A DNA stretch of 64,000 nt from an uncultured Pseudomonadota bacterium (GCA_902785935.1 CADAAN010000006.1:4309-68308); one strand, 5' to 3'; numbered from the stretch's first letter, positions 1-28,090 are shown. Notes: generated by a model not told the origin, from the sequence alone. Numbers and translations: made by a program.

Positions 1-1
1 A

Positions 2-160
2 GCAAAATATAAAGATGTGATTGCAAAATACGGTAATGTTGATGTATTCGTTTTGCCTAACTTTGAATGTCATTTCACAAAGCACAAAGGGGTTGAGTGT
101 CCATATAAAGACGATGACAAGGTTTGGGTTTTTGACGGCTACTCTTATTGCAATTGGTAA
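2..160 (+). CDS. C-terminal fragment of a CDS truncated by the window start (hypothetical protein)
   Basis: Open frame from the window edge to TAA at 158-160 (AKYKDVIAKYGNV...GYSYCNW*), followed by a hairpin plus T-run. Confidence 0.3.
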   Translation, partial: AKYKDVIAKYGNVDVFVLPNFECHFTKHKGVECPYKDDDKVWVFDGYSYCNW

Positions 161-182
161 TCTTTATTATTGGATAAGTAAA

Positions 183-208
183 GGGAGCTTTTTACGGCTC
201 CCTTATTT
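183..208 (+). terminator. Rho-independent terminator
   Basis: gggagc/gctccc stem followed by ttatttt. Confidence 0.45.
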
Positions 209-288
209 TATGTTTGTTTTCGCAATTTAATAATTGCCTTTTTATATAAATTCAATTAGACTTCGAATTGTAATTGATAGCATGAAAT

Positions 289-1476
289 ATGGTAATGAAA
301 AAAATATACTATACAGGAAAAGGTGGGGCTTTTAGGCTTTTTGTGGCAGAAAACAAAACTGACATCTGTGTTGTCGATTTTAAAAATGCATTAACAAAGA
401 CAGAACAAATTTTTATTGAAGAATATGCCTCTAAAATAGGATTAAGAAATAATTTACGACCTTTCCAAAATTTAAATGGTGTATATCAACAGGAGTGGTA
501 CAAAATCACAAAGCATTTTCTTAAACATGTTTCTCAAAATGGCGGACAAATTTCAGATATATGCGGCGATATACTAACTTTAAATGACCTCTCAAAAGCA
601 TATTTTGCTACAAAAAAAATACAAAATAAGCTTTGTTTTTATAAAATTGTACAGAAAATAAACCCAGACTATTTATTACCAAATTGGAAAATTAATAAGC
701 TAGAAAATCAAAAAAATGAATATCCACTCATTATCAAATCCTGTCAAGGAAAGGGCGGTAAAGGAAATATCGTATGCTATTCTGATTCTGATTTTGATCA
801 GTGTCATAAAATTTTAAATTCCAAGCTGTTTGCAAAAAAGCAAGAAAATGGACAATACAATACCTCAAACAAAATAATCATTGAAAAATTTTATCCCAAT
901 GCGGTCAGCTATAATTGTAGCTTTTACTGCACAAAGCAAGGAAAAATAAAATTTCAAAAGATATCACAACAAATAATTGAGGAAGTATTTTATAGAGGAA
1001 ACATTTATCCACCCCTGTTAACAAAATCACAACAGGAAGATGTTACGGAAATCAGTGAGAAAATTTGTCATATTTGCCATTCAGATTATGGATATGTTGG
1101 TTGGTTGGGTTTAGATTTTATTTTGCTTAATGATAAAATGCATATCATAGAAGCAAACCCCCGTGTCAATAGTGTTACACATGCGCATAAATTCTCCAAA
1201 GGCAATCCTTTTCTTATCAGGCTGATGCGGCATAAAGCGATGCAATTAACGGAGATTTTTGATAAATTCATTCTTAACCCTGTTACCGGATATGGAATAG
1301 TTCCTTACCAAATACCTGATAATGAAAATGTTCTTCTCCTCTCTGCAAATTCCACTTTAGAAAAAGCAGAGAATGAATTGAAAAGATTTGCTCAAGCAAA
1401 TGGACTAGAAAATGTCACTCAAGAAAATATTCTATCATTTTCTAAATCTGTTTCTTATTATTATACAAAGCTATAA
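289..1476 (+). CDS. ATP-grasp domain protein (function unknown)
   Basis: Motifs PLIIKSCQGKGGKGNIV and GLDFILLNDKMHIIEANPRVNS resemble the ATP-grasp fold (RimK/carboxylate-amine ligase type). Confidence 0.45.
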   Translation: MVMKKIYYTGKGGAFRLFVAENKTDICVVDFKNALTKTEQIFIEEYASKIGLRNNLRPFQNLNGVYQQEWYKITKHFLKHVSQNGGQISDICGDILTLNDLSKAYFATKKIQNKLCFYKIVQKINPDYLLPNWKINKLENQKNEYPLIIKSCQGKGGKGNIVCYSDSDFDQCHKILNSKLFAKKQENGQYNTSNKIIIEKFYPNAVSYNCSFYCTKQGKIKFQKISQQIIEEVFYRGNIYPPLLTKSQQEDVTEISEKICHICHSDYGYVGWLGLDFILLNDKMHIIEANPRVNSVTHAHKFSKGNPFLIRLMRHKAMQLTEIFDKFILNPVTGYGIVPYQIPDNENVLLLSANSTLEKAENELKRFAQANGLENVTQENILSFSKSVSYYYTKL

Positions 1477-2155
1477 TAATTTCTGAAATACTTTGCTTAA
1501 CAATCGGATTTACATACTTTTTCTTCTGTCCGTTCATAAGAATTGTATTTTGTAACTCTTGATATAGGTTTTTGGAATTTATACCTAAAGTATTTGAAAT
1601 TTTTTCACTCCAGATATTAAGGGGCATTTCTCTGGTGAGGTGTAAATCAATATGTTCCCGTATAAAACGTGGATTTAAAAGCTTGTTTTTAATATGTTGT
1701 GTATAGAAAGTTATCCTCTTCTTACGATTTTCTTCGTCAAAATATTTTTTAAACTGCCGAGGAAGTTCTTGAACTTCTTCAGCATACTTTCCTTTGAATG
1801 ATAATAAAATATTCTTAAATTCAATTTTAGGATACGATTGAGATATTTGAGAAATCATCTCTATTTCATCAGTTCCGTTAATACAAAAAGCATATAGACT
1901 ATCTGAGATAATAAAATTTTCAACATCTTTCTTGCGAATTCCATAAGTTACTTCTTTATTGTACAAAAACAACTGATCAGGATGAAGTGATTGTTCATGA
2001 ACAATATATCTTTCCTCGTCATCTGATCGAATAGGCCGACTCGTTACTTGCGGAATAATAAAAATATTTGGATCTGACACACTTATTGCTTTTAAAAGTG
2101 TGCTCTTTCCGACACAGGACGTTCCCGTAATGGATATAAAGTACTTTTTATCCAT
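1442..2155 (-). CDS. P-loop kinase, guanylate-kinase-like
   Basis: Walker A ITGTSCVGKSTLLKAI followed by IPQVTSRPIRSDDEERYIV (GK-like TTRxxR region). Overlaps the NUDIX gene by 8 nt, consistent with an operon. Confidence 0.4.
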   Translation of the reverse strand: MDKKYFISITGTSCVGKSTLLKAISVSDPNIFIIPQVTSRPIRSDDEERYIVHEQSLHPDQLFLYNKEVTYGIRKKDVENFIISDSLYAFCINGTDEIEMISQISQSYPKIEFKNILLSFKGKYAEEVQELPRQFKKYFDEENRKKRITFYTQHIKNKLLNPRFIREHIDLHLTREMPLNIWSEKISNTLGINSKNLYQELQNTILMNGQKKKYVNPIVKQSISEIIIALYNNKKQI

Positions 2156-2576
2156 GGGCTTTTACACTAATTATCACAAAAGGAGTTGCATTGCATGACG
2201 TTAAGTCTTGTTTAAGAATCCATAATGCACCATTTGAATCTAAATCTGAAATATTTATATTCGGCTCTCCTTGTACTTGACAATCAAAAAGTATACCGGT
2301 ATGAATTAAACAGCCTGGCCTTCCATCATCTTCTGTAAAGTCCTCAAATCGTACAATTTCTTCTTTACGCGAGGTACAATCGACAAGTTTACAGCCTGTT
2401 TCTTCCATAATTTCTCGTCTTAATGTTTCAAGTTCCGTTTCTCCTTCTTCTGGAGATCCTCCCGGTAAATCATACATCCCAGTATAAGGCCCTCTTTTTT
2501 TTCTAATAAGTAATACCTTATTATTTTTTTCAATATACCCATATATTCCCTTATGTGTTCTAGTTATTTCTCTCAC
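2148..2576 (-). CDS. NUDIX hydrolase
   Basis: Nudix box GGSPEEGETELETLRREIMEETG (GX5EX7REUXEEXGU). Confidence 0.75.
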   Translation of the reverse strand: MREITRTHKGIYGYIEKNNKVLLIRKKRGPYTGMYDLPGGSPEEGETELETLRREIMEETGCKLVDCTSRKEEIVRFEDFTEDDGRPGCLIHTGILFDCQVQGEPNINISDLDSNGALWILKQDLTSCNATPFVIISVKAHG

Positions 2577-3546
2577 TATTTATCTCCTTTAAACGAAAAT
2601 TTACATTGCTGATTAGGTGATTAAGAGTCGTTATAAAAAATTTATGTAAAACAATTTCAGTAAATTTATGCATTTCATAACAATAATATTCTGTAGATAA
2701 AGCCATCTCAAATCCCTTATAACAAGCCAACACGTTTATTATATCATATTTTTTTTGGAAGTCATCTGTTTTATTTAATATTTGATAATGCTTTTTTAAT
2801 ATTTTTTTTTCTAACACTATGTCTGGTTGATCTGTATATTTTAAAAGCAGGTCAATTAAATCGTACAATTGGTAGTTATATCGAATAGAATCAAAATCCA
2901 AAAATTTATATTTATCTTTGCAAATCAAAATATTTTGAGGATTACAATCCCCATGAATGATGCCATAATTCCAACTATTTTTAACGATATAAGGCATTGT
3001 AACGGTTTCTAATAGCTTCAATTTATCATATATTATGGAATAAGATTTGTATCTGTTGTCTATAACAAGGCAGTTTTTAACATTAGACGTCCAGTAGTGC
3101 TGAATACGTTTTTGGCTATTTTGAATTTCTTTTTTTAGATTTAATATGCGTTTTCCCTGATAACCAGACATATGAAAATCTTGCATCAATTGTAAGTTTT
3201 TAATAAAATTTTCCGAAATCTGCCCTTGGGCTTTTTTATATAATATTACAGGTTTTGATGCAAACTGACTTATGGCGTCATTAAATTTGTTCAGATTCAA
3301 TTCAATACAGTAAAATTTTTTATATTGATTAAACAGCTTCAAAGATTTTTGTAAAAATTTTCTTGTTTTGGTTTCGTAAATTTTCATAATATACTGTTGA
3401 TTAATTTCCAACACAGTATTGTCCATTGCATTATTATAAATTTTTATCTCGCACGGTATAATATTATATTCTGATACCAAAAATTCAGATATATCGTTCA
3501 CTTTATAACTTGTAAAATTTCCATAATTATTACTGTTTAAAAACAT
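2560..3546 (-). CDS. Aminoglycoside/choline-kinase-like phosphotransferase (APH fold)
   Basis: Catalytic loop IIHGDCNPQNILI and downstream DFD motif. The start is uncertain: the ORF extends to 3657, and 3546 (MFLNSNN...) avoids a long overlap with the upstream GT gene. Confidence 0.5.
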   Translation of the reverse strand: MFLNSNNYGNFTSYKVNDISEFLVSEYNIIPCEIKIYNNAMDNTVLEINQQYIMKIYETKTRKFLQKSLKLFNQYKKFYCIELNLNKFNDAISQFASKPVILYKKAQGQISENFIKNLQLMQDFHMSGYQGKRILNLKKEIQNSQKRIQHYWTSNVKNCLVIDNRYKSYSIIYDKLKLLETVTMPYIVKNSWNYGIIHGDCNPQNILICKDKYKFLDFDSIRYNYQLYDLIDLLLKYTDQPDIVLEKKILKKHYQILNKTDDFQKKYDIINVLACYKGFEMALSTEYYCYEMHKFTEIVLHKFFITTLNHLISNVNFRLKEINSERNN

Positions 3547-4768
3547 AGGTGTTTTCCATTTGTTGTAAAATATCTGATAGTTTATACTTATCTTTAATAC
3601 CTTGTGCAATATGTACATTTGGTTCTGACAAACTTTTTTGTACAGCATAGACACCATTTTCTACGATTTCTGTGTCTGTATGACCATCGAATGGTATACC
3701 TAAATACTGTTCATTCATACACATTATCTCAGGACAGCCTCCACGAAAAAGATAAACGATATTTTTTCCGCTTAGACATGCTTCTATAAGTGCCCCTGGA
3801 AAGTTATCGTGCCTATATGTAAACAAAAAGGTATCGCACGCACTATATATAAATTTCAAATCCCCATAATTAAAATAACCGCATATATGGATATTGGAAC
3901 TATATTGTTTTGAAATCATCGCATTAAGTGCTTTTAATGAATATTTCTGGTTTAATGTCAATGAATTTCCATTTATTTCATAATGACCAAAAAAATAAAA
4001 ATGAACATTCTTATTTTTTGAAATAATTTTTTTTGCTATTTTAATAGCCAAATCAGTTCCTTTTCTGTATTCTAGGCTTCCAATAACGAATATATTTGTA
4101 TCTTTTTCATTTATTTTGTGATTTTTTATGTGTTGATTATAAAATGCGCAGGCCTTTTTTCTTGATATCAAAGAAGTATCTTCAAAATGATTGTTAATAA
4201 AGTTGGGTATAATGCATACAGGAATCGATGCTATTTCTTTTATAAGATTTCTGGTAAAATTATATACGTAATTAGTAGGTGCAGAAAGTATATCTGAATA
4301 TATAAGCTCTTTATGCTCTCTCTGAATTTGTAACTGTTCTTCTGCTGAAAAAGTTGGATGTAATTGTTTTGTTAATTCCAATATACTATGTAGTCTCGTT
4401 ATTTTTAAAACGTTAGTATTGTGTACATGACTGTATAGATTTGATAATATGCCCTCCCAATCCGGAGCTTCAATAATTAGTTTGTTGTGCGGGTTTGAAG
4501 TAACTAGTTTTACTATTTTTTCTGCTGCATGTTCAATTTTGAGAATTAGATTAGGTTTAGGTATGTAAAGTATACGGCAATTTCCTTCCCTAACCGAAAT
4601 AAAACGATTTGTTGGAGATTCAGTCAGCCATATCATATGCACATTTGGCCTGTTTTGTTGGAAAGCTTGATATAAAAGCCCTAAATATGTACCTATACCG
4701 CCTTTAACAAGAAGTCTGTGATCCTCAGTCGATACGATTAAATAAAATAAGCTAGATAAATTGTTCAT
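3530..4768 (-). CDS. Glycosyltransferase family 1 (GT4-like)
   Basis: N-terminal GGIGTY motif; C-terminal NFPGALIEACLSGKNIV typical of the GT1 EX7E region; GGAG ribosome binding site upstream. Confidence 0.55.
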   Translation of the reverse strand: MNNLSSLFYLIVSTEDHRLLVKGGIGTYLGLLYQAFQQNRPNVHMIWLTESPTNRFISVREGNCRILYIPKPNLILKIEHAAEKIVKLVTSNPHNKLIIEAPDWEGILSNLYSHVHNTNVLKITRLHSILELTKQLHPTFSAEEQLQIQREHKELIYSDILSAPTNYVYNFTRNLIKEIASIPVCIIPNFINNHFEDTSLISRKKACAFYNQHIKNHKINEKDTNIFVIGSLEYRKGTDLAIKIAKKIISKNKNVHFYFFGHYEINGNSLTLNQKYSLKALNAMISKQYSSNIHICGYFNYGDLKFIYSACDTFLFTYRHDNFPGALIEACLSGKNIVYLFRGGCPEIMCMNEQYLGIPFDGHTDTEIVENGVYAVQKSLSEPNVHIAQGIKDKYKLSDILQQMENTYVFKQ

Positions 4769-4880
4769 TTAATTCTCCAATCTTAATATGAAGATTAACT
4801 AATTCATATAAGAAAACAATTTTTTATTGACATTTATCCCGAAAATTGTATACGTTATTCTCCAAATAATGGAGATATTA

Positions 4881-6206
4881 ATGACTTTTTCATGTGGAAT
4901 TGACTTTGGAACAACAAATACTGCAGCAGCTCTATCGACAAGTAAAACCGAACCTACACTTATTCATTTAGAAGGTGATAGCGTAATAATCCCTAGTGCA
5001 CTATTTATCGGTATAGATAAAAAGATATATTTTGGCAAACAGGCAATGCAGTTGTATATGAATGGTGAAAACGGCCGTTGTATGCGTAGTTTGAAACGTG
5101 TGCTAGGTACAGATTTAATGATGTCTGGTACATATTTTAATAATAACAAAATTTCCTTTTCCGAACTTTTAAGTTGCTTTTTGAAAAACATAAAAAATAA
5201 AATTGATCTAGCGGCTGAAGCAAATGTTGACAGTGTTGTCTTAGGTAGACCTGTCCATTTTCAAGATAATAATCCGAACAGTGATATGCGTGCTGAAAAT
5301 GAACTGAGGCAAATAGCACAAAAAGCCGGCTTTAAAAATATAGAATTTCAATACGAACCGATTGCGGCCGCGTTTGCTCATGAATCAAAAATTACCGAAG
5401 AAAGTTTGGCTTGTGTTATTGATATTGGTGGTGGTACTTCCGATTTTTCAATTATTAAAATCGGACAACCACTTATGTTAAAAGTTGATAGAACAGATGA
5501 TATCCTTTCAAGCGTCGGTATTCGTATAGGAGGTAATGATTTTGATAAAGATTTGTCTTTGAAAGCATTCATGCCGGTATTTGGTTATCAAACACTACAA
5601 GGTGGACAAACACCTTACGATAAAGTCATGACTTTACCCACAATACCATTCAGAACAATGGCAGAATGGAGTTCTATCAACTCAATGTACACATATAAAG
5701 AACTTAATTTTGCAAAAAAAATGTTATTCAATGCTCAAGAAAAAGAAAAACTTCAGCGTTTTGTAGAATTAATTGAAAAGCAAAAAGGGTATTCCCTATT
5801 AAATACGGTTGAAAAAACAAAAATAAAATTAACTGAACAGTGCAAAATAAACGTACCATTGAATTTTATTTCTGATAAACCAGTTGTTCCTGTGTCAAGA
5901 CAAAATCTTAATGAATCTATAGAATTAGATGTCGCCCGTATTTTTAAGAAAGTAGATGAATGCTTTAGTCAAGCCGGCATCAAACCTGATGATATACAAT
6001 ATGTTATTTTGACTGGTGGTTCTACAGAAATCCCTTTAATTCAGAATATTGTTTCTCGTTATTTTCCGAATGCCGTTTTATCTCAAGACAACAAATTCTC
6101 TAGCGTAAGTATAGGTTTAACATACGACGGCATGCGAAGATTTTCAAAAAGAGAATCTTCTAAAGGATGTATGGTAGGTTCTCATACAGGATATTTAGGA
6201 CGATAG
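4881..6206 (+). CDS. Hsp70-family ATPase (non-canonical DnaK-like; HscC/YegD-like)
   Basis: GIDFGTTNTAAA phosphate-1 motif, DIGGGTSDFSII phosphate-2 motif, ILTGGSTEIPLIQ adenosine motif; GGAG ribosome binding site before ATG 4881. Divergent from the GT operon. Confidence 0.75.
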   Translation: MTFSCGIDFGTTNTAAALSTSKTEPTLIHLEGDSVIIPSALFIGIDKKIYFGKQAMQLYMNGENGRCMRSLKRVLGTDLMMSGTYFNNNKISFSELLSCFLKNIKNKIDLAAEANVDSVVLGRPVHFQDNNPNSDMRAENELRQIAQKAGFKNIEFQYEPIAAAFAHESKITEESLACVIDIGGGTSDFSIIKIGQPLMLKVDRTDDILSSVGIRIGGNDFDKDLSLKAFMPVFGYQTLQGGQTPYDKVMTLPTIPFRTMAEWSSINSMYTYKELNFAKKMLFNAQEKEKLQRFVELIEKQKGYSLLNTVEKTKIKLTEQCKINVPLNFISDKPVVPVSRQNLNESIELDVARIFKKVDECFSQAGIKPDDIQYVILTGGSTEIPLIQNIVSRYFPNAVLSQDNKFSSVSIGLTYDGMRRFSKRESSKGCMVGSHTGYLGR

Positions 6207-6213
6207 TGGTAGT

Positions 6214-7152
6214 TTATGCTTTATGTCTGTTGCCTGACACATAAGCCTGCAGGTCTTCCAAACGGTATTTAACCGTTCTGCCGATTTTAACAAACGGCAA
6301 CCGATCGGGATATTGCGTGCGCCAGCGTTCCAACGTGTTTGGTTTGAGCTTCAAATACTTGGCAGCTTCTTCTGTCGTTAACAGGTCAGACGGATGATCC
6401 GGAACATTTTCTTCTTCATCAAACAGCACATTTTTGCTTTGCTGTTTGAAAATCTTTTCTTCCAAACGTTCAATGGCGCGACTTTGTAACTTATAGCCCG
6501 TGCGCGTTAAAGCATCCCTTAAAATGCGATAACACATATCAATTCCCTTAAATCCGTCACATTCAAACTTAACATCTATATTGACTTTGTAACCGAAATA
6601 AACATCCGTGAACCAAAACTTGTTTTTAAAAACGGCATCTTGAAAATTAGTATCGCCATTAAAACAGTTGCCCAAAAATGAGACTTCCGTTTCAAAAACC
6701 GCTCTTGAAAAACTTATGCTGTGATCTTCATAAGTTCCCTGATTTTCCAATTCATCTCCACGAAAATAAAAATAGCCGTCTTTTGCAGGTTTCGTCTGAA
6801 TAAAGAAAAAGTCCAACTCTTTTTCGTAAATGATGTTGTTAAAGTTTGTGATGCCGTTAAAAACAGAACGTGTAAAACATGTATGTCCACAAAAGACGCT
6901 CTTTTCAAAGCTTGTATTACCCTTAAATTCGCATTGCATAAATTTCAAATTGACCTTAAAGATCGCTCGGCTTAAATCTAAATCATTAAATGTGCACTGA
7001 TAAAACTCAACTTCCGGCACACCACATTCAATAATGGCTTTGATTTCCTCGTTATCTACTTCGCTAAAATCAAGCGTATCAAAAAATGCCATTCCTTTTG
7101 CTCTGAAATAATCTAAATCAAAATGCTTTTCTTTGTTATAAGTCTTTGCCAC
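6214..7152 (-). CDS. Pentapeptide-repeat protein fused to a C-terminal excisionase-family (MerR/AlpA-like) HTH DNA-binding domain
   Basis: Repeated A(D/N)(L/F)xx pentapeptide-like units (CFTRSVFNGITNFNN, GNCFNGDTNFQDAVFKNKFWFTDVYF); C-terminal LLTTEEAAKYLKLKPNTLERWRTQYPDRLPFVKIGRTVKYRLEDLQAYV matches the excisionase/Xis HTH. Confidence 0.6.
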   Translation of the reverse strand: MAKTYNKEKHFDLDYFRAKGMAFFDTLDFSEVDNEEIKAIIECGVPEVEFYQCTFNDLDLSRAIFKVNLKFMQCEFKGNTSFEKSVFCGHTCFTRSVFNGITNFNNIIYEKELDFFFIQTKPAKDGYFYFRGDELENQGTYEDHSISFSRAVFETEVSFLGNCFNGDTNFQDAVFKNKFWFTDVYFGYKVNIDVKFECDGFKGIDMCYRILRDALTRTGYKLQSRAIERLEEKIFKQQSKNVLFDEEENVPDHPSDLLTTEEAAKYLKLKPNTLERWRTQYPDRLPFVKIGRTVKYRLEDLQAYVSGNRHKA

Positions 7153-7164
7153 GGTTCTGCTCCT

Positions 7165-7542
7165 TTACAAATCTAACACCTGTTTTAAGAGGTTAATTTG
7201 ATTTACAAATTTTTCTGGATTACTTTGTTGCAATCTTATCAAATTTTCTATTTTCCATCTAACACCGGAGAGTCTACCTACATTTGGTATAGTTGTGTTT
7301 TTCCATGCTTCATCCAATGAAAAGAAATCTATCAAAAATTGTTTATCATCGGGTGTTAAAGCTGATTTTACTTTGGAAACAAGTGTGTCAAAAGTGTTAT
7401 TGCAATCTTCCATGGTGAAGCTTTCATCACTCATTCCCTGAAACTCTTGTTCAAACTTTGTAGAAATATTTTGTTTATTTGGGGCTAATAATTCATGTGG
7501 AGGGCGATTATGTTGCAACAAACTTACATATTGTTCAATCAT
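7165..7542 (-). CDS. Hypothetical protein (island gene)
   Basis: ORF of 125 aa, start/stop-coupled to the upstream gene; no recognisable motif. Confidence 0.35.
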   Translation of the reverse strand: MIEQYVSLLQHNRPPHELLAPNKQNISTKFEQEFQGMSDESFTMEDCNNTFDTLVSKVKSALTPDDKQFLIDFFSLDEAWKNTTIPNVGRLSGVRWKIENLIRLQQSNPEKFVNQINLLKQVLDL

Positions 7543-8303
7543 TAGATTTCTCCAAAGTCTTCTATAACGATATTATATTTCTTATCTAATTTTCCGTTTT
7601 TGGTGATGATGCGCTTACCGGAACCTATGTTTATTTTATCTACTTGGATTTCAGTAAACCACGAATGATTTATTTTTTCTGCCATATAAAGGAATAAACG
7701 CTTTACTTTCACGGAAGAACAGTTTTCCAATAATTCTTGCATGAGTTTCGGACGAAGATTCACCAAAAGTTCAAGTGTTTGAAATGTTTCTTTCAAAGAT
7801 ATTATATTTGGAGCTAAATACAGCATTTCTAATATAGCTCGTTCCGGTGTTGAAACTTGCACAGAAAAGACATCGTGGACATCAGTTATTCCTAGCTCAG
7901 CAGGTAGAAAATCAGATTTTACCCACTGATACCTCTTGTTTTTAAAATATTCTACAAACCATTTTGGTTGCAAAACCTTATTACTGCTGAAAAGAAACCA
8001 TTGAAAGCCCTCTAATTGCACAAAATGGTTAAATCCGTGAAGCATAAGTGCACTTTTAGCTCCAAAATGAACATCCGAACCTAATTGCTTTTGCAAGGCA
8101 TAAACTGCTCCTCTTATGGTTGGTGTATCACCATATCTTGAAAACGCTCCGGTTCCTATTGATTGCAACCATTCGTTATTTTTATAGTACTGTTGCAAAT
8201 CGTTAGATATACCTAAACTCTTTAGCCATACCGAAGTAACAACAGCTCCTTGAGGTATCTGTTGCAACATTTGGTTTAAATATGTTTTTCTTTTCGTAGT
8301 CAT
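7542..8303 (-). CDS. Hypothetical protein, possibly AbiEi-like (COG5340) winged-helix regulator
   Basis: N-terminal QQIPQGAVVTSVWLKSLGIS...GTGAFSRYG resembles the AbiEi antitoxin N-terminal domain; weak. Confidence 0.3.
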   Translation of the reverse strand: MTTKRKTYLNQMLQQIPQGAVVTSVWLKSLGISNDLQQYYKNNEWLQSIGTGAFSRYGDTPTIRGAVYALQKQLGSDVHFGAKSALMLHGFNHFVQLEGFQWFLFSSNKVLQPKWFVEYFKNKRYQWVKSDFLPAELGITDVHDVFSVQVSTPERAILEMLYLAPNIISLKETFQTLELLVNLRPKLMQELLENCSSVKVKRLFLYMAEKINHSWFTEIQVDKINIGSGKRIITKNGKLDKKYNIVIEDFGEI

Positions 8304-8394: not shown

Positions 8395-9552
8395 CTATTT
8401 TTTGCTGATTTGTATCATTTTGTTAATGGTATCGTTCAATTTATCGCGTAGGTGTTCAACACCCAAATTGACGTAAACTTGCGTGCTTTGCAGACTTTTG
8501 TGGGTTAAGGCTCGTTTTACCATAAAAGCATCAGCCCCGTTTGCTATCAGATATGTACCTAAGGTATGTCTAAGGTCGTGAATTCGGAAATTTGTTATAT
8601 TTGCCCTGCGCAATATAATTGCCCACGATTTTTTAATATCTACCACATGACCTGATTTTGAAGTCGGAGAATAGAATATCCAATCGCTTTGAGCCGATGA
8701 TTGTCTTTGATATAAAACCTTCATTGCTTCTTCAGCCAGAGCAATCGTTACATTCTCATCTGTTTTTGTTTGCGGAATTTTCCAAATCTTAGCAGACATA
8801 TCTATGTCTTCCCATTTCATTTCAAAAACATTTGATTTGCGAGCTCCGGTAAAGATAAGCATTAAAACAATGTCACGCACCAAATCATCTTCATAAGCGT
8901 AAACCGTTTCCATAAAGCGCTTGAGTTCATTATGCTCTAAATAACGCACACGGGCTTCAACTTTGTTTAATTTGACTGATAATGCAGGGTTCCGACCGTC
9001 AAAACGTTCTTCTTTGATTGCATAGTTGAACATTGTACTGATAAGCTTAATAAAATGATTTGCTATGTAATTGCCGTTTTTGACGGATATTTGCCGATGT
9101 AATTCGCGTAGCATATCGCCGGTTATTTCTTTTAGGTGTTTTCTGCCAAGTTTACACAGCTTTGAATTCCATATTCTTTTGTAATCTAATATTGTTTTTT
9201 GCGCAAGATATCTTTCTCTGTCTGTAATAAAATCATCGTATAACTGTTGCAATAGAGTATCTTGTTTATACTGACGCTTTGTAACGTTAGGGTTTTCTCC
9301 ATCATTCATTTTCTTGCGATTTGTAACGGCGGCAATTCTGGCTTCTTCTACAGTCATAGTCGGAGATTCGCCGAGTTTAACGCGAGTATCATGCCCGAGA
9401 ACTCTTTGTCGGATATAGAAACTTTTTGCCCCGTTCGGAGTTATTTGCAGCGACAGTTTAGGCTCTACCGTATCATAATAATAGGTTCTTTTCTTCGGTA
9501 TCGGTAAGTTTTTGATATTTGTGTTGGTAAACTTAAAATGATTAGCGTTCAT
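8395..9552 (-). CDS. int: Tyrosine recombinase / phage-type integrase
   Basis: C-terminal catalytic residues in the R...HDLRHTLGTYL...Y arrangement; N-terminal arm-binding region; adjacent to a tRNA-like att fragment. Confidence 0.9.
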   Translation of the reverse strand: MNANHFKFTNTNIKNLPIPKKRTYYYDTVEPKLSLQITPNGAKSFYIRQRVLGHDTRVKLGESPTMTVEEARIAAVTNRKKMNDGENPNVTKRQYKQDTLLQQLYDDFITDRERYLAQKTILDYKRIWNSKLCKLGRKHLKEITGDMLRELHRQISVKNGNYIANHFIKLISTMFNYAIKEERFDGRNPALSVKLNKVEARVRYLEHNELKRFMETVYAYEDDLVRDIVLMLIFTGARKSNVFEMKWEDIDMSAKIWKIPQTKTDENVTIALAEEAMKVLYQRQSSAQSDWIFYSPTSKSGHVVDIKKSWAIILRRANITNFRIHDLRHTLGTYLIANGADAFMVKRALTHKSLQSTQVYVNLGVEHLRDKLNDTINKMIQISKK

Positions 9553-9746
9553 AAGCCCCTCTGTCGTATAGTAATTGTTTTCCGGTGCCGCACTGGTGCC
9601 GCATATTTAAACAAATTTTATCCAATTTAATAAAACTTGTCAAGTAAAATTTTTAAAAATAATATAATAAAAACAAACACATAAATGCATTTTCATAAGA
9701 GATATGATTTTCTAAATAAAACATAATATCAATTACTCTTAATCAG

Positions 9747-9779
9747 TGGGTCCGGGGTTCGAGCCCCCGTGCGCGTACC
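9747..9779 (+). other. tRNA-like 3' half (T-arm plus acceptor 3' strand plus CCA) without a matching 5' half; att site of the island, possibly derived from a tRNA or tmRNA 3' end
   Basis: cgggg-ttcgagc-ccccg T-arm, tgcgcgt acceptor strand, discriminator a, cca. The upstream sequence is AT-rich and cannot form the D-arm or anticodon arm. Confidence 0.6.
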
Positions 9780-9781
9780 AA
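9763..9781 (+). repeat. att core direct repeat, copy 1 (cccccgtgcgcgtaccaat)
   Basis: 19-bp match (1 mismatch) with 9931..9949. Confidence 0.6.
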
Positions 9782-9785
9782 TAGA

Positions 9786-9810: not shown

Positions 9811-9930
9811 GATTCTGCCAAGCCAAAGGAGCGAAGCCCGAAAAGGGGTTTGACTACAAGCAAAATGCGAGCGTAAGCGCGCCGATCGGCCCCAGCCGAT
9901 GAGCGCAGTGAACATAGCGAAGCGAAGTAG

Positions 9931-9949
9931 CCCCCATGCGCGTACCAAT
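9931..9949 (+). repeat. att core direct repeat, copy 2 (cccccatgcgcgtaccaat)
   Basis: Second copy, about 150 bp from copy 1, at the end of a GC-rich 150-bp segment. Confidence 0.55.
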
Positions 9950-9997: not shown

Positions 9998-12169
9998 TTA
10001 TGCAGCTTTGGAAAGCTCTGATAAAACATCCTTTTTCAAGGTGACGTTATCAACCTTTCCGGTTGCGGACATCGGGATTTTATCCCGATAAATTATCTGG
10101 CGCGGCAGATAAAGCTCAGGATAGCCGTTTTGCTTGATAAATTCACGCAACATTTCGGTATTAAGCGTTTTTTCGTTGGTTACAACAACAATTTGCTCAC
10201 CTTTCTGTTCATGCGGTACGGCTACGACACCACAGCAAAAATCATCTCTACCGGAAAAAGCGCTGTTAATCATATTTTCAACCGCTTTTAATGAAATCAT
10301 CTCACCGCCGACCTTGGCAAAACGTTTGATACGGTCTTTGATCGTGATAAATCCGATTTCATCAATCTCAACAACATCACCTGTGTGATACCAACCGTTG
10401 TGCGGCGGTACCAAAACCCCCGGATTGTCGGCAAAAATATAACCCTTCATCACATTCGGCCCCTTGACCACAAGCTCACCGCCGCGTTCAATACCGTCTA
10501 CTTTTTCAAGACGACATTCCATTCCCGGACAGAGTTTGCCGATGGTGCCGAATTTATTAAATACCATGTTGTTGCCTGCAACAGCCGGAGAACATTCCGT
10601 CGTGCCATAGGCTTCCATCAGACGTGTGCCCAATCGCTCATTTAATAAATTGCGTGTATCAAGCTTGACGCCTTCTGCTCCCGCATAAACAAGCCTTAAT
10701 GACCCGAAATCAAGCGGATGCGAAATTTTGGCATAGCTTCTGAAGAATGTATCCGTACCAATCATCACTGTTGCACTTAATTCATAAAGCAAATCCGAAA
10801 TGACGCGAAAATGGAGCGGAGAGGGGTACAAAAAGACTTTTGCACCTTGATAAAGAGCATAAAGTGTGCCTAATACAAGCCCGAAACTGTGGAAAATCGG
10901 CATTGAATTTAAGACAATATCACGCTTGTTTAAGGTTTCAAAAGTCGCAATTTGCCATACGTTTGAAATCACGTTTTGATTTGACAATACAACGGCTTTC
11001 GGTGCACCTTCCGAGCCTGAGGTAAACAAAATAACGGCTGCATCGTCAGGGGTTGCTTTATATGGCACATATTTGACTTTGTATTGCAATAAGGCCAAAA
11101 TTTTTGCAAAAATCGAAACAGACCGTCCGACTTCTTCTAAAAAAATCACCTCAAATCCGGCATTTGTAATCGCTTCAGCCAGCGGTTCTAATCCCGCTTT
11201 TTTGATAAACATTTTTGATGTAATCACTTTTTTTGCCTGAACGGTTTTAAGCCCGCTTATTACATTCTGTGCACCGGCAGAAAAGTTAATCATGACAGGC
11301 ACTTGTCCATAGGCATTTAAGCCGAAAAATGTGCATATAGCCGCAACGGAATTCGGAAGCATCACGGCAACCGGCTCTTTCTTGTCCGAAATGAGAGAAA
11401 AATGACGCCCCAAAACATACGATGCAAGCATAATATCCTTAAAAGTTTTGGGTTTGCGCGTAATATCTTCCAAAACGTATGGACGACGCAGGCCAAAGCA
11501 TCTCTTTGCATGAATTTTTGAGGCTTTAATCAATTGTGTAAAGACCGTCATTTTTTTATCATAAATCGATTCAAACATTTGCTCACGCATAATCATGTAA
11601 ATTTCATTTGAAATGTGATTACGTTGATGCCTGAGCTCTGCCTTAAGCTTTAAGGGACGGGGTGCGTCAACAACAATTTTGACATGCGGAAAATAACGAT
11701 GCGGTAATTTTCCGCCTGTTTTTGAAAAATGGCAATACTGCAAGCCGTTAATCCAAATCGGTATGACGGGCGAATCCGTTTTATCGGCAAGAAGCCCCGC
11801 TGATTCATAAATCTTCATAATATTACCGTTGGTTGTCATACGTCCTTCCGGAAAAATGACGCAAAGGCGGCCGGAATTAACCGTTGAAATCAAATGCTTT
11901 AAGTCCGGTACGTCAATATTGTCATGTTTGACAACATCAGCCGTTTTTAAAAACAAACGTACCCAATAGTTGCGATAGAGTTGCCCGTGCAATGCAAAAA
12001 CCGGATTGCCGGGTAAAAACGCAAAAAGCACAATCGGATCAACCCATGATACGTGGTTTGAAATATATACGCCCTTTTTGGGAAGTTTATCAACGTCAAA
12101 ACGCATTTCAAAACGAACCTTAAAGGTCTTAAAAAAACATCTTAAAAGAAAGCGAACAATATCGCGCAT
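9998..12169 (-). CDS. aas: Bifunctional 2-acylglycerophosphoethanolamine acyltransferase / acyl-ACP synthetase
   Basis: N-terminal PlsC-type acyltransferase HxxxxD motif (NHVSWVDP); C-terminal AMP-binding motifs FTSGSEGAPKAVVLS and YGTTE; 723 aa. Confidence 0.85.
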   Translation of the reverse strand: MRDIVRFLLRCFFKTFKVRFEMRFDVDKLPKKGVYISNHVSWVDPIVLFAFLPGNPVFALHGQLYRNYWVRLFLKTADVVKHDNIDVPDLKHLISTVNSGRLCVIFPEGRMTTNGNIMKIYESAGLLADKTDSPVIPIWINGLQYCHFSKTGGKLPHRYFPHVKIVVDAPRPLKLKAELRHQRNHISNEIYMIMREQMFESIYDKKMTVFTQLIKASKIHAKRCFGLRRPYVLEDITRKPKTFKDIMLASYVLGRHFSLISDKKEPVAVMLPNSVAAICTFFGLNAYGQVPVMINFSAGAQNVISGLKTVQAKKVITSKMFIKKAGLEPLAEAITNAGFEVIFLEEVGRSVSIFAKILALLQYKVKYVPYKATPDDAAVILFTSGSEGAPKAVVLSNQNVISNVWQIATFETLNKRDIVLNSMPIFHSFGLVLGTLYALYQGAKVFLYPSPLHFRVISDLLYELSATVMIGTDTFFRSYAKISHPLDFGSLRLVYAGAEGVKLDTRNLLNERLGTRLMEAYGTTECSPAVAGNNMVFNKFGTIGKLCPGMECRLEKVDGIERGGELVVKGPNVMKGYIFADNPGVLVPPHNGWYHTGDVVEIDEIGFITIKDRIKRFAKVGGEMISLKAVENMINSAFSGRDDFCCGVVAVPHEQKGEQIVVVTNEKTLNTEMLREFIKQNGYPELYLPRQIIYRDKIPMSATGKVDNVTLKKDVLSELSKAA

Positions 12170-12352
12170 TTTATTTGTCCTTATCTGTTTTATATTTTAT
12201 GATGTTAAAATACATATGATAGTGCAAAATGTAAAGTAGGCACTTTGGGGAAACTATTGAAAATCTGTGCATAAATTTATCATTTCGGTAAATTTGGCTT
12301 GAGCTTGATTTATGCATAAAATTATGCTATATTTAAGTAAAGGAGAAGAGTT

Positions 12353-18404: not shown

Positions 18405-20579
18405 TTGAAAAACTTTGTGAGATTTTGTCTGCGTACGTTCTTTTATATCTTCAAGGTCAGATGCAACATCAAGTTTGACTTGAAGAAATTGCCTAAAAAA
18501 GGTGTTTATGTTTCAAACCACGTGTCTTATTTAGACCCGATTTTGCTCTTTGCCTTTTTGCCGGGCAATCCGATTTTTGCCTTAAACGGGCATTTGTATC
18601 GTCGAAGATTTATCCGTTTTTTGATGAAAACGGCTGATATTGTGGAATTTAATCCGATTGAACCGTCTGATTTGAAGGATTTAATCAATAAGGTGAACGA
18701 TAATCGTCTTGTGGTGATTTTTGCCGAAGGACGTATCACCGAAAGCGGCGGCTTGATGAAGATTTATGAGGCGCCGGGGCTTTTGGCGGACAAAACCAAT
18801 GCACCGATTATCCCGATTTGGATTGAAGGTCCGCAATATGGTTATTTTTCAAAGACAAAAGATAAATTGCCCCACAGACCGCTTCCTAAAATGCTGATTA
18901 CGGTCGGCAATCCGAAACCCTTAAAGCTTAAAGATGAGCTTCGTCGTCAGCGTGACCACTTAAGCAATGAAGTGTATCATATTTTGACGGATATGCAGTT
19001 TTCAATTACCTACAATCCGAATATTTCGATTTTTGCACAGCTTGTCAAAACATCTAAAGTATATTCAAAAACGGGCTTTTTCTTTAAACGTCCGATGGTG
19101 ATTGAAGATATTAACCGCAAACCGATGAGCTATAAGGATTTGTTGCTCCGTGTTTATTTACTCGGTAAGTTTTTTAAGAAAAAAGCCGCGCATATGGAGC
19201 ATGTCGGCTTGATGTTGCCGAATACAATCGCGGCTGCGGCAACGTTTTTGGGGTTATCCGCGTATGAGCGAATCCCTGTCATGCTGAACTTTTCAGTAGG
19301 TGCCAAAAACCTGATTTCAATGTGCAAAACAGCGGAAGTAAAGCTTGTGATTACGTCAATCGCCTTTATTAAAACGGCAAAAATGGAGCCGGTGATTGAA
19401 GTCTTAAAATCAAATGGTATCGAGGTCTTTTATCTTGAAAGTTTGGCTAAAAAATTAGGGATTATCAGCAAATTGGGTGCCATGCTTCGTTATAAAACAA
19501 AGCGTATCCCGCACCGTCACGGCGGCAACAGAAAAGCGGCTATTTTATTTACGTCAGGCTCTGAAGGTGCTCCGAAGGCCGTTGTTTTAAGCCATGCCAA
19601 CATTATCTCTAACATCAAACAAGTTACAACGGTCGAAACAATCAATATGAAGGATTTGGTCTTTAATGCCATGCCGATGTTCCACAGCTTCGGACTGACA
19701 ATCGGTACATTGTTCCCGCTTTTAGAGGGGGGCAGGGTGTTTTTGTATCCTTCGCCGTTGCATTATCGCGTGATTGCTGAATTGATTTATGAGCTGGGTG
19801 CGACAATTTTGTTCGGGACAGATACCTTTTTCAGAGGTTATGGACGAATCGCGCATCCGTACGATTTTTATAACGTTCGGTTTATGTATGCCGGTGCTGA
19901 GGCTGTTAAACTTGATACGCGTAATTTGTTTATGGAGCGGATGGGCGTGCGCATTATGGAAGCATACGGTGTGACGGAATGTGCGCCGTTTGTGGCAGCC
20001 AACAATCACGTTTACAGTCGATTCGGCTCAATCGGCAAAATTGTGCCGGGGATTGAGTATAAGTTAGAGCCTGTGCCCGGGATTGAAAAAGGCGGAGAGC
20101 TTGTCGTTAAAGGTCCGAATATTATGATGGGCTATATCATGCCTGATAAACCCGGGGTTTTGGTACCCTTAAAAGACGGCTGGTATCATACGGGTGATGT
20201 GGTTGAAATTGATGAAATCGGCTATGTCTTTATCAAAGACCGCATCAAACGCTTTGCTAAAATCGGCGGTGAGATGGTGTCCTTAAATGCCGTACAGGAT
20301 ATGGTTATCAAGGCTTATGAATGGATGGGGCCTGACTTTAGTTATGGTATTGTTTCCGTACCGCATGAAAGCAAGGGTGAGCAAATCGTCTTGGTCACGA
20401 ACAACAATCAGGTCAAACAGGAAGTTTTGCATGACTATATCAAAAACAATGGTATGTCTGAGCTGTTTTTGCCTCGAACCATCCTGTATCATGAAAAAAT
20501 TCCGGCCTTTTTGACAGGTAAAACCGATAACGTTACCTTGAAAAAAGAAGTGATGGAAGAATTGGGCTTAAATAAATAA
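18405..20579 (+). CDS. aas: Bifunctional acyltransferase / acyl-ACP synthetase, second paralog
   Basis: Same domain architecture as 9998..12169 (NHVSYLDP; FTSGSEGAPKAVVLS), about 55% identical; TTG start with GGAG ribosome binding site. Confidence 0.85.
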   Translation: MKNFVRFCLRTFFYIFKVRCNIKFDLKKLPKKGVYVSNHVSYLDPILLFAFLPGNPIFALNGHLYRRRFIRFLMKTADIVEFNPIEPSDLKDLINKVNDNRLVVIFAEGRITESGGLMKIYEAPGLLADKTNAPIIPIWIEGPQYGYFSKTKDKLPHRPLPKMLITVGNPKPLKLKDELRRQRDHLSNEVYHILTDMQFSITYNPNISIFAQLVKTSKVYSKTGFFFKRPMVIEDINRKPMSYKDLLLRVYLLGKFFKKKAAHMEHVGLMLPNTIAAAATFLGLSAYERIPVMLNFSVGAKNLISMCKTAEVKLVITSIAFIKTAKMEPVIEVLKSNGIEVFYLESLAKKLGIISKLGAMLRYKTKRIPHRHGGNRKAAILFTSGSEGAPKAVVLSHANIISNIKQVTTVETINMKDLVFNAMPMFHSFGLTIGTLFPLLEGGRVFLYPSPLHYRVIAELIYELGATILFGTDTFFRGYGRIAHPYDFYNVRFMYAGAEAVKLDTRNLFMERMGVRIMEAYGVTECAPFVAANNHVYSRFGSIGKIVPGIEYKLEPVPGIEKGGELVVKGPNIMMGYIMPDKPGVLVPLKDGWYHTGDVVEIDEIGYVFIKDRIKRFAKIGGEMVSLNAVQDMVIKAYEWMGPDFSYGIVSVPHESKGEQIVLVTNNNQVKQEVLHDYIKNNGMSELFLPRTILYHEKIPAFLTGKTDNVTLKKEVMEELGLNK

Positions 20580-27600: not shown

Positions 27601-27776
27601 GCATCAAGCTTTGCTGGCATACGGACGATGCGGAGCTTGCACAAGCCTTAAATGACAATAAGGCCTATATTGCTCAGCAGGTTTTGGCGCTTGAGACGTC
27701 TGATGTTTGCACATCCGGCACGACCGATACCATTGAAGGGCAAAACATCACCTTTGATGCTGTCGTTGCAAAATAA
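24684..27776 (+). CDS. ileS: Isoleucyl-tRNA synthetase (type 2)
   Basis: PFANGTPHYGHI (HIGH), WTTTPWTLPSN, DWSISRNRFWGTPIPVW, KLSKR (KMSKS-like); 1030 aa. Confidence 0.85.
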   Translation: MKHYAEIGAKPDFVKLEKEVLKFWDEDKTFEKSVHNRDGAAEFVFYDGPPFANGTPHYGHIMVSYVKDVVARFQTMMGKKVERRLGWDCHGLPAEMSAEKQLGVSGRKQIEEYGVEKFNDFCRADVLKYSSIWVDMFKRIGRWVDFSHDYKTMDLSFMESVIKNFKTLYDKGLVYEDYRVLPYSWAAQTPLSNFEVNQGYQEKTDNAITVMFELETGDKILVWTTTPWTLPSNLMLAVGKDIDYAVMQEEDGQKYIIAEARLGAYKKQLEHAVKVGSVKGADLVGLSYKPMFKYFEGLKAKGAFKVLSGEFVSTEDGTGVVHIAPGFGQDDFDACRAYDENFPIVCPVDEAGKFTSEVPDYEGKQVFETNEPIMTWLKTNGLLVKKEQYTHSYPFCWRTDTPLIYKAMSSWFVKVTDFKDEMVRNNQEINWVPEHIKDGRFGKWLEGARDWSISRNRFWGTPIPVWKSDNPKFPRIDVFGSINEIKEKTGFDVKNLHKPYIDEVVYPNPDDPSGQTMMRRVSDVFDCWFESGSMPYAQVHYPFDNKAWFENHFPADFIVEAMDQTRGWFYTLTVLSTALMGKPAFKNCICTGLLMAEGGQKLSKRLKNYPDPNEVLENIGSEALRWFLVSSPVLKGGNLAVDKEGKEISKALRSALIPLWNAFYFFVLYANAEEYQAKEITSSSEAIDNYILSKLKVLRDHVEHGLSTYDVSEATTEATNFMEVLNNWYIRRTRDRFWSGDKQAFDTLYTVLVVLSKILAPLMPFLSEYVYKNLTKGESVHLIDFPKLEDIKVDEELVKDMDFVQSLCSAGKFIREEKNLRGRLPLASLTLVGAELTPAYQDIVKDELNVKEVRFDNNLSLYADKKLYLYTPLLGKTLGKDMGKVMAAYKQNEWSLNDDGTLNIAGLNLAKDLFEVRLDMKEGIAGLSFADNKAVVMLDTNLTPELKREGMARDFVRMVQTMRKEKDFNISDRIKLCWHTDDAELAQALNDNKAYIAQQVLALETSDVCTSGTTDTIEGQNITFDAVVAK

Positions 27777-27838: not shown

Positions 27839-28090
27839 TGTTGATAAGAAAAGTACTAAAAAATAAGGAAAAAATGCATTTTTATACAAAAAATAAACAA
27901 AAAAATAAAATTTTTTGCATTTTTTGCTTGTTTTTCGATTCAAAATGTGATACATTGACAACATAAAAGTACCATAAGTTATGTTTATAAGAATTAATAA
28001 CTATTGTGAACGGGTTGAAGATTTTTTTGAAGTCTTGCCTGCGTTGTACTTTTGAAATTTGAAAAATTAATCATCAAATATTTTACAATT

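Follow-up and report, generated by a model that had tools for sequence, protein, structure and literature searches.

Introduction

Glucosylation of hydroxymethylcytosine (hmC) in the T-even phages relies on the dCTPase gp56, the hydroxymethylase gp42, the deoxynucleoside monophosphate (dNMP) kinase gp1, and alpha- and beta-glucosyltransferases. The 2-aminoadenine (dZ) pathway of phages S-2L and PhiVC8 uses the (d)GTP pyrophosphatase MazZ, PurZ, and the guanylate kinase of the host, and in the inner core of lipopolysaccharide (LPS), the GT4 glycosyltransferase WaaG is paired with the kinase-fold sugar kinase WaaP. Here, we describe a cluster of six genes (positions 289 to 6206) that recalls parts of each of these systems, located in a stretch of 64,000 nucleotides from an uncultured Pseudomonadota bacterium (GCA_902785935.1 CADAAN010000006.1:4309-68308), referred to below as the window. 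The cluster encodes an ATP-grasp ligase, a P-loop kinase with the guanylate kinase fold, a NUDIX pyrophosphohydrolase, an APH-fold kinase, a glycosyltransferase (GT1), and an Hsp70-like ATPase. A preliminary description, made from the sequence, had proposed that these genes work together as the cargo of a genomic island and had been unable to place them in any described pathway or defense system.

The cluster resembles the T4 pathway (gp56 dCTPase, gp1 dNMP kinase, glucosyltransferases) in its logic. However, it has no hydroxymethylase, its pyrophosphatase is a NUDIX protein and not a dUTPase-fold enzyme, its kinase is guanylate kinase-like and not gp1-like, and its glycosyltransferase is of the GT4 type and not from the T4 families; moreover, it adds an APH-fold kinase, an ATP-grasp ligase, and an Hsp70, and it is also found in bacteria, without a phage replication apparatus. 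The dZ pathway is similar in that a dedicated nucleoside triphosphate pyrophosphatase feeds a modification at the level of the nucleoside monophosphate (NMP), followed by rephosphorylation by a guanylate kinase. In contrast to that pathway, the cluster lacks a homolog of PurZ/adenylosuccinate synthetase, includes glycosyl-, phosphoryl-, and amide-forming enzymes, and encodes its own kinase, in which the guanine-binding Glu is missing. We did not classify it under either pathway because their base-modifying enzymes are absent; no thymidylate synthase-like hydroxymethylase, PurZ, or 5-hydroxymethyluracil (5-hmU) DNA kinase plus aGPT-Pplase was detected in the unit or in the 11 to 13 kb of sequence covered on the related phage-like contigs described below. 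As with WaaG and WaaP, a GT4-type transferase is combined with a protein kinase-fold kinase, and the two plausibly add and then phosphorylate a sugar, but the sequence relationship is at the superfamily level only, and the genes have no LPS context and are coupled to a NUDIX protein, a second kinase, a ligase, and an Hsp70.

Database comparisons bore out the preliminary description in this respect, since no system-level match was found in PADLOC, NCBIfam, the PDB, cultured phages, plasmids, or the literature. None of the systems in PADLOC-DB 2.0 was matched, and the ATP-grasp and GT1 proteins had no match there at all. Two PADLOC candidates, PDC-S07 (NUDIX; E value of 3.6e-11 over 55 residues) and PDC-M61B (Hsp70-like; 1.8e-14 over ca. 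70 residues), gave partial, superfamily-level matches, and their partner genes are not present with the cluster. We therefore rejected a known defense system as an explanation, the neighboring Shango and AbiE genes being separate systems. The gene set was not described in the literature searched, including the surveys of jumbo phages and of NAD-ADPr from the Aravind laboratory. The components come from well-known enzyme superfamilies, but neither the families nor the way in which they are combined has been described, and both are very rare. We place the cluster among the multienzyme cassettes for nucleotide or sugar modification that move between phages and defense islands.

Organization of the cluster

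The six open reading frames (ORFs) were recovered at the positions previously given. The ATP-grasp carboxylate-amine ligase (289 to 1476, plus strand; 395 amino acids [aa]) converges on four genes of the minus strand, which code for the P-loop kinase (1442 to 2155; 237 aa, with a C-terminal helical extension of ca. 100 aa), the NUDIX pyrophosphohydrolase (2148 to 2576; 142 aa; Pfam NUDIX, 2e-14), the APH/protein kinase-fold phosphotransferase (2560 to 3546; 328 aa; Pfam APH, 6e-7), and GT1, a Pfam family 1/GT4-type GT-B glycosyltransferase (3530 to 4768; 412 aa; Pfam Glycos_transf_1, 3e-17). The Hsp70 gene (4881 to 6206, plus strand; 441 aa) diverges from GT1, as had been noted, across a spacer that measures 112 bp (4769 to 4880) when read from the ORF coordinates. 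Two of the starts differ from those of the longest ORFs. For the APH-fold kinase (longest ORF, 2560 to 3657), the start at 3546 follows from ortholog alignments and metagenome gene calls, and for Hsp70 (longest ORF, 4827 to 6206), ortholog alignments and independent gene calls indicate the ATG at 4881 as the most likely start. With these corrections, the overlaps are 35 nt for the convergent ATP-grasp and P-loop genes and 8, 17, and 17 nt for the others, in agreement with the range of 8 to 35 nt reported before.

All six ORFs have intact catalytic motifs. None of the six proteins contains hydrophobic segments, and no transporter, flippase, or lipid carrier enzyme is found among the genes of the unit. 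A scan for promoter and terminator consensus sequences, including sigma-70, gave matches no more frequent than expected by chance and fewer than in shuffled sequences, so that no promoter is claimed in the spacer. The GC content ranges from 0.28 to 0.33 across positions 1 to 6000 and is ca. 0.40 elsewhere in the window.

Conservation and mobility of the six genes

Among 5.8 billion nonredundant proteins, the P-loop and ATP-grasp families were represented by only 13 and 19 clusters, respectively. We inspected the contigs encoding members of these two families and confirmed orthologs by tblastn. All six were found together in at least seven metagenomic lineages (the window with its identical contig L001, L014, L005, L010 to L013, L016, L099, and L100), with identities between orthologs that drop to 25 to 45% in the most distant ones. 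Gene order is less constant. L014 and L005 share the arrangement of the window, with Hsp70 divergent from GT-APH-NUDIX-P-loop and ATP-grasp convergent, while in L010 and L016 the same four genes face ATP-grasp-Hsp70; L099 has Hsp70-ATP-grasp-NUDIX-P-loop facing APH-GT, and in L100, all the genes are on a single strand in the order Hsp70-NUDIX-P-loop-ATP-grasp-GT-APH. At every locus, GT and APH are neighbors and so are NUDIX and the P-loop kinase. The genes of Hsp70 and ATP-grasp lie side by side in L010, L016, L099, and L101 and overlap in three of the four. The unit is thus composed of pairs, with one cassette for GT and the APH-fold kinase, one for NUDIX and the P-loop kinase, and one, usually kept together, for Hsp70 and ATP-grasp. 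Every complete copy of this narrow family includes Hsp70. This ATPase, described at first as an unusual partner, is a true member of the set: it accompanies the other genes, and in other lineages its translation is coupled to that of ATP-grasp.

The limits of the unit were set by DNA homology. A blastn comparison of L001 with L014 produced a single match of 5,999 bp at 91.6% identity, corresponding to positions 222 to 6219 of the window, and homology ended abruptly on both sides. In L014, this copy sits between tyrS and anmK, without an integrase. One sharply bounded match at such a site indicates that the six genes are a self-contained mobile unit and that the island of the window is merely one of its landing sites. 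The location of the genes within an integrase-bounded element, as first described, can be refined; an integrase does follow (8395 to 9552), but the unit is autonomous and is not tied to that island. Its GC content in the window is 0.307 versus 0.397 for the remaining sequence, and at most bacterial loci it lies 6 to 12 points under that of the flanks. Two copies are decayed, as expected of accessory genes. In L007, a deletion fuses the N terminus of GT to the C terminus of the kinase, and in L101, only Hsp70, ATP-grasp, and a remnant of the P-loop gene are left.

Conservation over such deep divergence, together with movement as one unit, sustains the view of a co-functional cargo cluster, and we are highly confident that the six genes form one real functional module. 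It is neither a set of housekeeping genes nor a chance assembly. The preliminary description had been open to both objections, either that the set would not be co-conserved elsewhere or that single genes would fall into standard housekeeping families. The seven lineages answer the former and the scores the latter (P-loop kinase, 18.8 bits versus a Gmk cutoff of 160; Hsp70, 265 versus 331 for YegD). Being small (6.0 kb), self-contained, and sharply bounded, the unit is amenable to direct synthesis and testing.

A degenerate direct repeat was noticed on the far side of the module in L014, where positions 12129 to 12262 repeat host flank plus the last ca. 30 codons of Hsp70 (5882 to 6113) in pieces of 55 nt at 91%, 23 nt at 96%, and 35 nt at 83% identity. 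This has the appearance of a scar left by a previous or a tandem insertion there.

Fusion proteins in the wider family

When the P-loop alignment was used for an exhaustive HMMER search, ca. 50 representatives were retrieved at an E value of <1e-10, with the signature ITGxSTxGK[ST]T ... IPQxTxRxxRxDD. Within this wider family, the P-loop domain is fused to GT1 (P0049), to APH (P0057 and P0058), to NUDIX (P0086), and to both ATP-grasp and GT1 (P0079), and such fusions indicate which enzymes act together, a help in planning their biochemical reconstitution. The fused domains score 58 to 255 bits against hidden Markov models (HMMs) made from the proteins of the module itself, and for this reason we consider them orthologs and not generic domains. 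At locus L108, APH and NUDIX genes come after the triple fusion, and Hsp70 is lacking. The fusion proteins of the wider family are all metagenomic, with uninformative names, and the P-loop alignment had no match in the GTDB representative genomes.

In another fusion, P0060 (GenBank MBQ4472564.1), the partner of the kinase is a probable CYTH (triphosphate tunnel) domain, weakly supported by a match to almost the whole Pfam profile at an E value of 0.004, a match to PDB entry 2een (E value of 0.014), and an EVEVR start. If the CYTH domain is real, another hydrolase acting on triphosphates may stand in for NUDIX in this protein. A 77-aa ORF in L108 was considered as a substrate peptide and discarded, as it looks like a detached C terminus of GT; the longer cluster members P0183 and P0184 match the GT1 HMM up to its C-terminal end.

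Motifs and relatives of the six proteins

NUDIX is the most conserved protein of the module (68 to 71% identity where the other five have 38 to 57%). Its Nudix box, GGSPEEGETELETLRREIMEETG, is canonical, the superfamily pattern Gx5Ex7REUxEExGU is present as GGSPEEGETELETLRREIMEETGC with invariant key positions, and the Pfam score is 54 bits against a cutoff of 21. The nearest solved or curated relatives are the nucleoside triphosphatase NudI and MutT, although the scores remain below the equivalog cutoffs (32.4 bits versus 95 for NudI and 23 to 24 versus 98 to 148 for MutT).

The P-loop kinase is related to Escherichia coli Gmk at an hhalign probability of 93.6% and has the Gmk-type P-loop and both GMP phosphate-binding motifs, TTRxxRxGE and YYGT(S). 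R40, R43, and Y71, the equivalents of the substrate phosphate binders of Gmk, are invariant across 35 sequences. In contrast, the Gmk segment EHAE, carrying the guanine-recognizing Glu (E72 in E. coli Gmk), is deleted in the whole family. Given this deletion, a score of only 18.8 bits on TIGR03263 (guanylate kinase; cutoff of 160.45), and the C-terminal extension, we describe the protein as having the guanylate kinase fold and not as Gmk. Its motifs suggest that it most likely phosphorylates an NMP-type phosphomonoester other than GMP.

The APH-fold kinase contains the beta-3 Lys (in ILKIYETK), the catalytic loop HGDCNPQN (HGDxxPxN), and the Mg-binding Asp (in FLDFD), and the corresponding residues K55, D200, and D217 are invariant in 12 sequences that include phage-type copies. 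It exceeds the Pfam APH cutoff (29.8 versus 23.2 bits), and its nearest solved relatives are the small-molecule kinases amicoumacin kinase and YtaA, as well as YihE. GT1 (Pfam score of 63 bits versus 26.4) has the motifs of a GT4-type retaining GT-B enzyme, including a C-terminal domain for nucleotide sugar binding with an R/K pair and an (E/D)x7E motif, and VKGGIGTY at the N terminus, GSLEYRKG, and Dx7E (DNFPGALIE) are all invariant. Neither NCBIfam nor PDB searches revealed a close characterized relative, the sole PDB sequence match being a fragment of the mannosyltransferase WbaZ-1. The ligase shows the ATP-grasp fold with its three domains, the flexible loop rich in Gly, and ExN ligands for Mg. 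PGM1 and a Streptomyces peptide ligase are its best structural neighbors, but identity to the PGM1/BesA/LdmS/PurD group is only 13 to 18%, and scores fall from 180 to 38 bits outside the family, which is thus isolated. By NCBIfam, it is nowhere near RimK, the housekeeping S6 glutamyl ligase. For the P-loop, ATP-grasp, and GT proteins, PDB sequence searches returned fold-level matches only.

The Hsp70 consists of the nucleotide-binding domain alone, without linker or substrate-binding domain, with invariant phosphate-1, phosphate-2, and adenosine motifs. E. coli YegD has the same architecture. The best NCBIfam model is PRK11678 (YegD), at 265.5 bits versus an equivalog cutoff of 331; identity to E. 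coli YegD is 27%, and the insertion of ca. 40 aa found in the latter is missing. By these features, the protein appears to be YegD-like and to belong to a separate subfamily. The two also differ in their surroundings, as yegD adjoins yegI-pphC-yegL while the Hsp70 of the module is embedded in an enzyme operon. Neither the L108 variant nor the phage-type core described below contains an Hsp70, and in this sense the protein is accessory.

Some further observations concern these kinases and ATPases. In E. coli K-12 (2147674 to 2153128; L102), yegD lies beside yegI (Ser/Thr kinase), pphC (PP2C phosphatase), and yegL (vWA), a trio presumably of the "ternary" conflict system type. The APH-fold kinase of the module has a weak Pfam match to TCAD9, a domain named after ternary conflict systems; this lead was abandoned, as the match covers only the catalytic loop region of the kinase and the eLife 2020 paper contains nothing that matches. 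Most Hsp70s of the module end in a poorly conserved tail of ca. 20 aa (window positions 6141 to 6206) whose last residue is Arg, usually in Gly-Arg, and E. coli YegD likewise ends in Arg. The idea that this C-terminal Arg is a ligation site for the ATP-grasp enzyme was given up, since L099 lacks the tail and in L101 it is not terminal.

Related genes on phage-like contigs

A metagenome scan with a seven-sequence subset of the wider-family alignment yielded five loci, each with overlapping NUDIX and P-loop genes. In all of them, a gene of the APH family precedes this pair, and a GT4-type gene precedes APH where the contig extends far enough, the same order as in the window. In L104 to L106, a UvsX-like recombinase, a UvsY-like mediator, a protein with two GT2 domains, and a Stealth-like protein are found on one side of this core, and an acyl carrier protein, a dUTPase, a large ORF resembling virion proteins, and a GroES-like cochaperonin are found on the other. 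This set of genes is characteristic of large T4-like phages. The GC content of the core in these contigs (0.26 to 0.30) equals that of the flanks.

The phage-type copies are 42 to 48% identical to the module for NUDIX and ca. 30% for the P-loop kinase, the only two proteins with clear orthology between the phage and bacterial versions. We also considered whether the phage-type GT and APH are orthologs of those in the module, but hhalign does not support this; hence, we use "four-gene core" in the limited sense of same family and same order. No relatives of the module were found in the plasmids searched. In L105 (4620 to 4859) and L106 (8673 to 8912), the gene of the 79-aa acyl carrier protein is placed directly after the P-loop kinase gene and before the dUTPase.

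A possible pathway and its alternatives

Our reading, put forward tentatively from folds, motifs, and genomic context, is that the module may be a phage-derived, cytoplasmic, nucleotide-centered modification pathway used in phage-host conflict. The NudI/MutT-like NUDIX would strip pyrophosphate from a nucleoside triphosphate, or cut a related diphosphate linkage, and the kinase with the guanylate kinase fold would rephosphorylate a modified phosphomonoester of the NMP type. The GT4-type glycosyltransferase would add a hexose, and the APH-fold kinase would phosphorylate a hydroxyl, most likely on that sugar. An amino acid could be attached via an amide bond by the PGM1/BesA/LdmS/PurD-like ATP-grasp ligase, with the Hsp70 ATPase as an accessory regulator, scaffold, or sensor. 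The predicted product is a nucleotide, or a small molecule derived from one, that bears sugar and phosphate groups and possibly an aminoacyl group. The module would probably be of phage or mobile element origin and might act in conflict as, for example, an antiviral nucleotide analog, a signal, or a modification of nucleic acid precursors. A more specific version, in which a phage-origin conflict system turns a common nucleoside triphosphate into a nucleotide decorated with glycosyl, phospho, and aminoacyl groups (an antiviral chain terminator or inhibitor, an immune signal, or the precursor of a new hypermodified base of DNA or RNA) and Hsp70 is the infection sensor or switch, is conceivable but doubtful.

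The conservation of NUDIX and its kinship with NudI/MutT, the presence of R40, R43, and Y71 in the Gmk-fold kinase, the solubility of the proteins, and the lack of transporter, flippase, or lipid carrier genes appear to support the nucleotide-centered pathway, as does, weakly, the probable CYTH domain that takes the place of NUDIX in P0060. So do the phage-like core placed between UvsX, UvsY, dUTPase, and GroES genes and the bacterial copies beside defense or mobile genes. Several points weigh against it. Each enzymatic step is drawn from fold and motif rather than from a specificity-determining match, and NudI-type NUDIX enzymes also hydrolyze nonnucleotide diphosphates. The unit contains no nucleotidyltransferase, hydroxymethylase, or polymerase, and the role of Hsp70 is not explained by such a pathway. 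The assignment to phages rests on five metagenomic contigs, whose GT and APH share only the Pfam family with those of the module (hhalign probability of <3%), and relatives were found neither in IMG/VR nor, with the P-loop, GT1, and NUDIX proteins as queries, in cultured phages. Finally, L014 and L010 are in housekeeping surroundings without defense genes, and GT2/GT8 or GT4/AsnB genes flank the module at two bacterial loci, as would fit a glycan role.

One alternative, anticipated in part by the preliminary description, is decoration of an envelope or virion glycoconjugate. The GT4 transferase and the APH-fold kinase would add and then phosphorylate a sugar, like WaaG and WaaP, ATP-grasp would amidate a sugar acid as in the Campylobacter capsule, and the NUDIX and P-loop enzymes would tune the pool of nucleotide sugars or nucleotides. 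L005 is flanked by GT4, asparagine synthase, ABC ATPase, and GT2 genes and L010 by GT2 and GT8 genes, the core of the phage-like contigs adjoins two GT2 domains and a Stealth-like protein, and the weak NCBIfam matches of GT1 are to glycolipid and exopolysaccharide transferases. However, the six proteins are soluble and the unit has no membrane protein, flippase, polymerase, or polyprenyl-phosphate transferase, it inserts alone at loci unrelated to glycans (tyrS/anmK and a defense island), and the pair that is conserved best and fused most frequently, NUDIX and the guanylate kinase-fold kinase, is not known to act in glycan pathways beyond the GDP-mannose hydrolase WcaH. We regard this alternative as unlikely and the nucleotide-centered reading as better supported. 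Modification of a protein (of the host, of a phage, or Hsp70 itself) by glycosylation, phosphorylation, and aminoacylation, with Hsp70 as the adaptor, is less probable still. It would suit the peptide substrates of the ATP-grasp neighbors PGM1 and the Streptomyces peptide ligase, the additional resemblance of the APH-fold kinase to protein kinases such as YihE, the variable tail of ca. 20 aa ending in Arg in most Hsp70 orthologs, and the translational coupling of Hsp70 and ATP-grasp in several lineages, the two being the sole intact pair left in L101. Yet Hsp70 has no substrate-binding domain, is missing from the L108 variant and the phage-type core, and has a tail that is absent in L099 and nonterminal in L101; moreover, the NUDIX/kinase pair is left unexplained, and no conserved small substrate ORF accompanies the genes (the 77-aa ORF of L108 resembles a split GT C terminus).

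An equally low probability is given to a module for NAD+ or ADP-ribose, with NUDIX acting on ADP-ribose or NAD as a pyrophosphatase of the NadM-Nudix kind, the P-loop protein phosphorylating ribosyl-nucleosides in the manner of NadR or NRK1, and the other enzymes making derivatives of ADP-ribose that would serve in salvage or in the synthesis or breakdown of an immune signal. NUDIX does match NadM-Nudix families (E values of 5e-7 to 1e-5), there is a weaker similarity to NRK1, and the genomic settings are of the conflict type, but NudI is the better match. ADP-ribose pyrophosphatases are recognized by a Pro ca. 16 residues after the Nudix box, and this residue is absent from the NUDIX of the module; neither does the unit contain NMNAT, Nampt, TIR, SIR2, or macro domains. 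The idea that the six are independent enzymes modifying xenobiotics or antibiotics, or housekeeping paralogs juxtaposed by chance, is hardly credible and largely refuted already by synteny and fusions. The genes are strictly co-conserved through shuffling of their order, they overlap and are apparently translationally coupled, multidomain fusions exist, and every score is far under all equivalog cutoffs.

Should the nucleotide-centered pathway prove true, it would be a new enzymatic route common to large phages and the defense islands of gut and rumen bacteria, joining a short list of nucleotide-level strategies (hmC glucosylation, dZ, 7-deazaguanines, and viperin products), and it would provide the first functional context for YegD-like Hsp70s made of the nucleotide-binding domain only. 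If the product were a new class of molecule or signal, the module would be categorically new.

Genomic surroundings

In the window, the module is followed on the minus strand by genes that belong to the island and not to the module, namely, an HTH_17/pentapeptide protein with an excisionase-type helix-turn-helix (HTH) (6214 to 7152), a 125-aa C-terminal fragment of AbiEii (7165 to 7542), a full-length AbiEi antitoxin of 253 aa (7542 to 8303), and a tyrosine integrase (8395 to 9552). This AbiE toxin-antitoxin/abortive infection pair is decayed, as the 125-aa ORF covers only the last ca. 115 residues of AbiEii. The identical 89-kb contig L001 extends the island to the left of the window with two unknown genes, an ankyrin-repeat protein, and a complete Shango system (L001, 15392 to 20714), located ca. 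3.2 kb past the left edge of the window and recognized by SngA (TerB domain; E value of 3e-40), the ATPase SngB (3e-151), and the helicase SngC (2e-201). Between this system and the window, three unknown ORFs accompany the ankyrin-repeat gene. Copies in other lineages are surrounded by GmrSD, WYL, and zeta toxin genes (L101), Mrr (L100), SIR2, an FtsK-like ATPase, and zeta toxin (L007), or an element with HTH, M78, primase, and DUF3987 (L099).

The host is an alphaproteobacterium of the gut or rumen, with a TypA 95% identical to that of the metagenome-assembled genome (MAG) RUG11221 and whose next ca. 50 best matches are nearly all to MAGs of rumen or gut Alphaproteobacteria. On these grounds, we discarded a Legionella-type effector island, considered in view of the low GC content and the ankyrin gene.

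Some features of the rest of the window are worth recording. Next to the integrase, at positions 9744 to 9783, there is a tRNA-like 3' end (GGGTCCGGGGTTCGAGCCCCCGTGCGCGTACCA), the final part of which is repeated as a 21-nt copy 167 bp away (9929 to 9949). ARAGORN and Rfam called no gene at this site, and Rfam found two tRNAs only over the window; the tRNA-like end is probably left over from an att site or belongs to an RNA gene that is split or permuted. Two paralogous genes for Aas-like acyl-ACP-phospholipid acyltransferase/acyl-ACP synthetases (9998 to 12169 and 18405 to 20579; 723 and 724 aa) lie <8 kb apart, one of them directly beside the integrase end of the island. The only GC-rich kilobase of the window (0.52 versus ca. 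0.40) contains a 378-aa ORF without Pfam or NCBIfam matches (28052 to 29188), which adjoins a BspA-type leucine-rich-repeat protein (29407 to 30540). Finally, the isoleucyl-tRNA synthetase at 24684 to 27776 scores high on the models of MupA/MupB (mupirocin resistant, type 2) as well as on the general IleS models and, given these MupA/MupB scores, is probably a type 2 enzyme.

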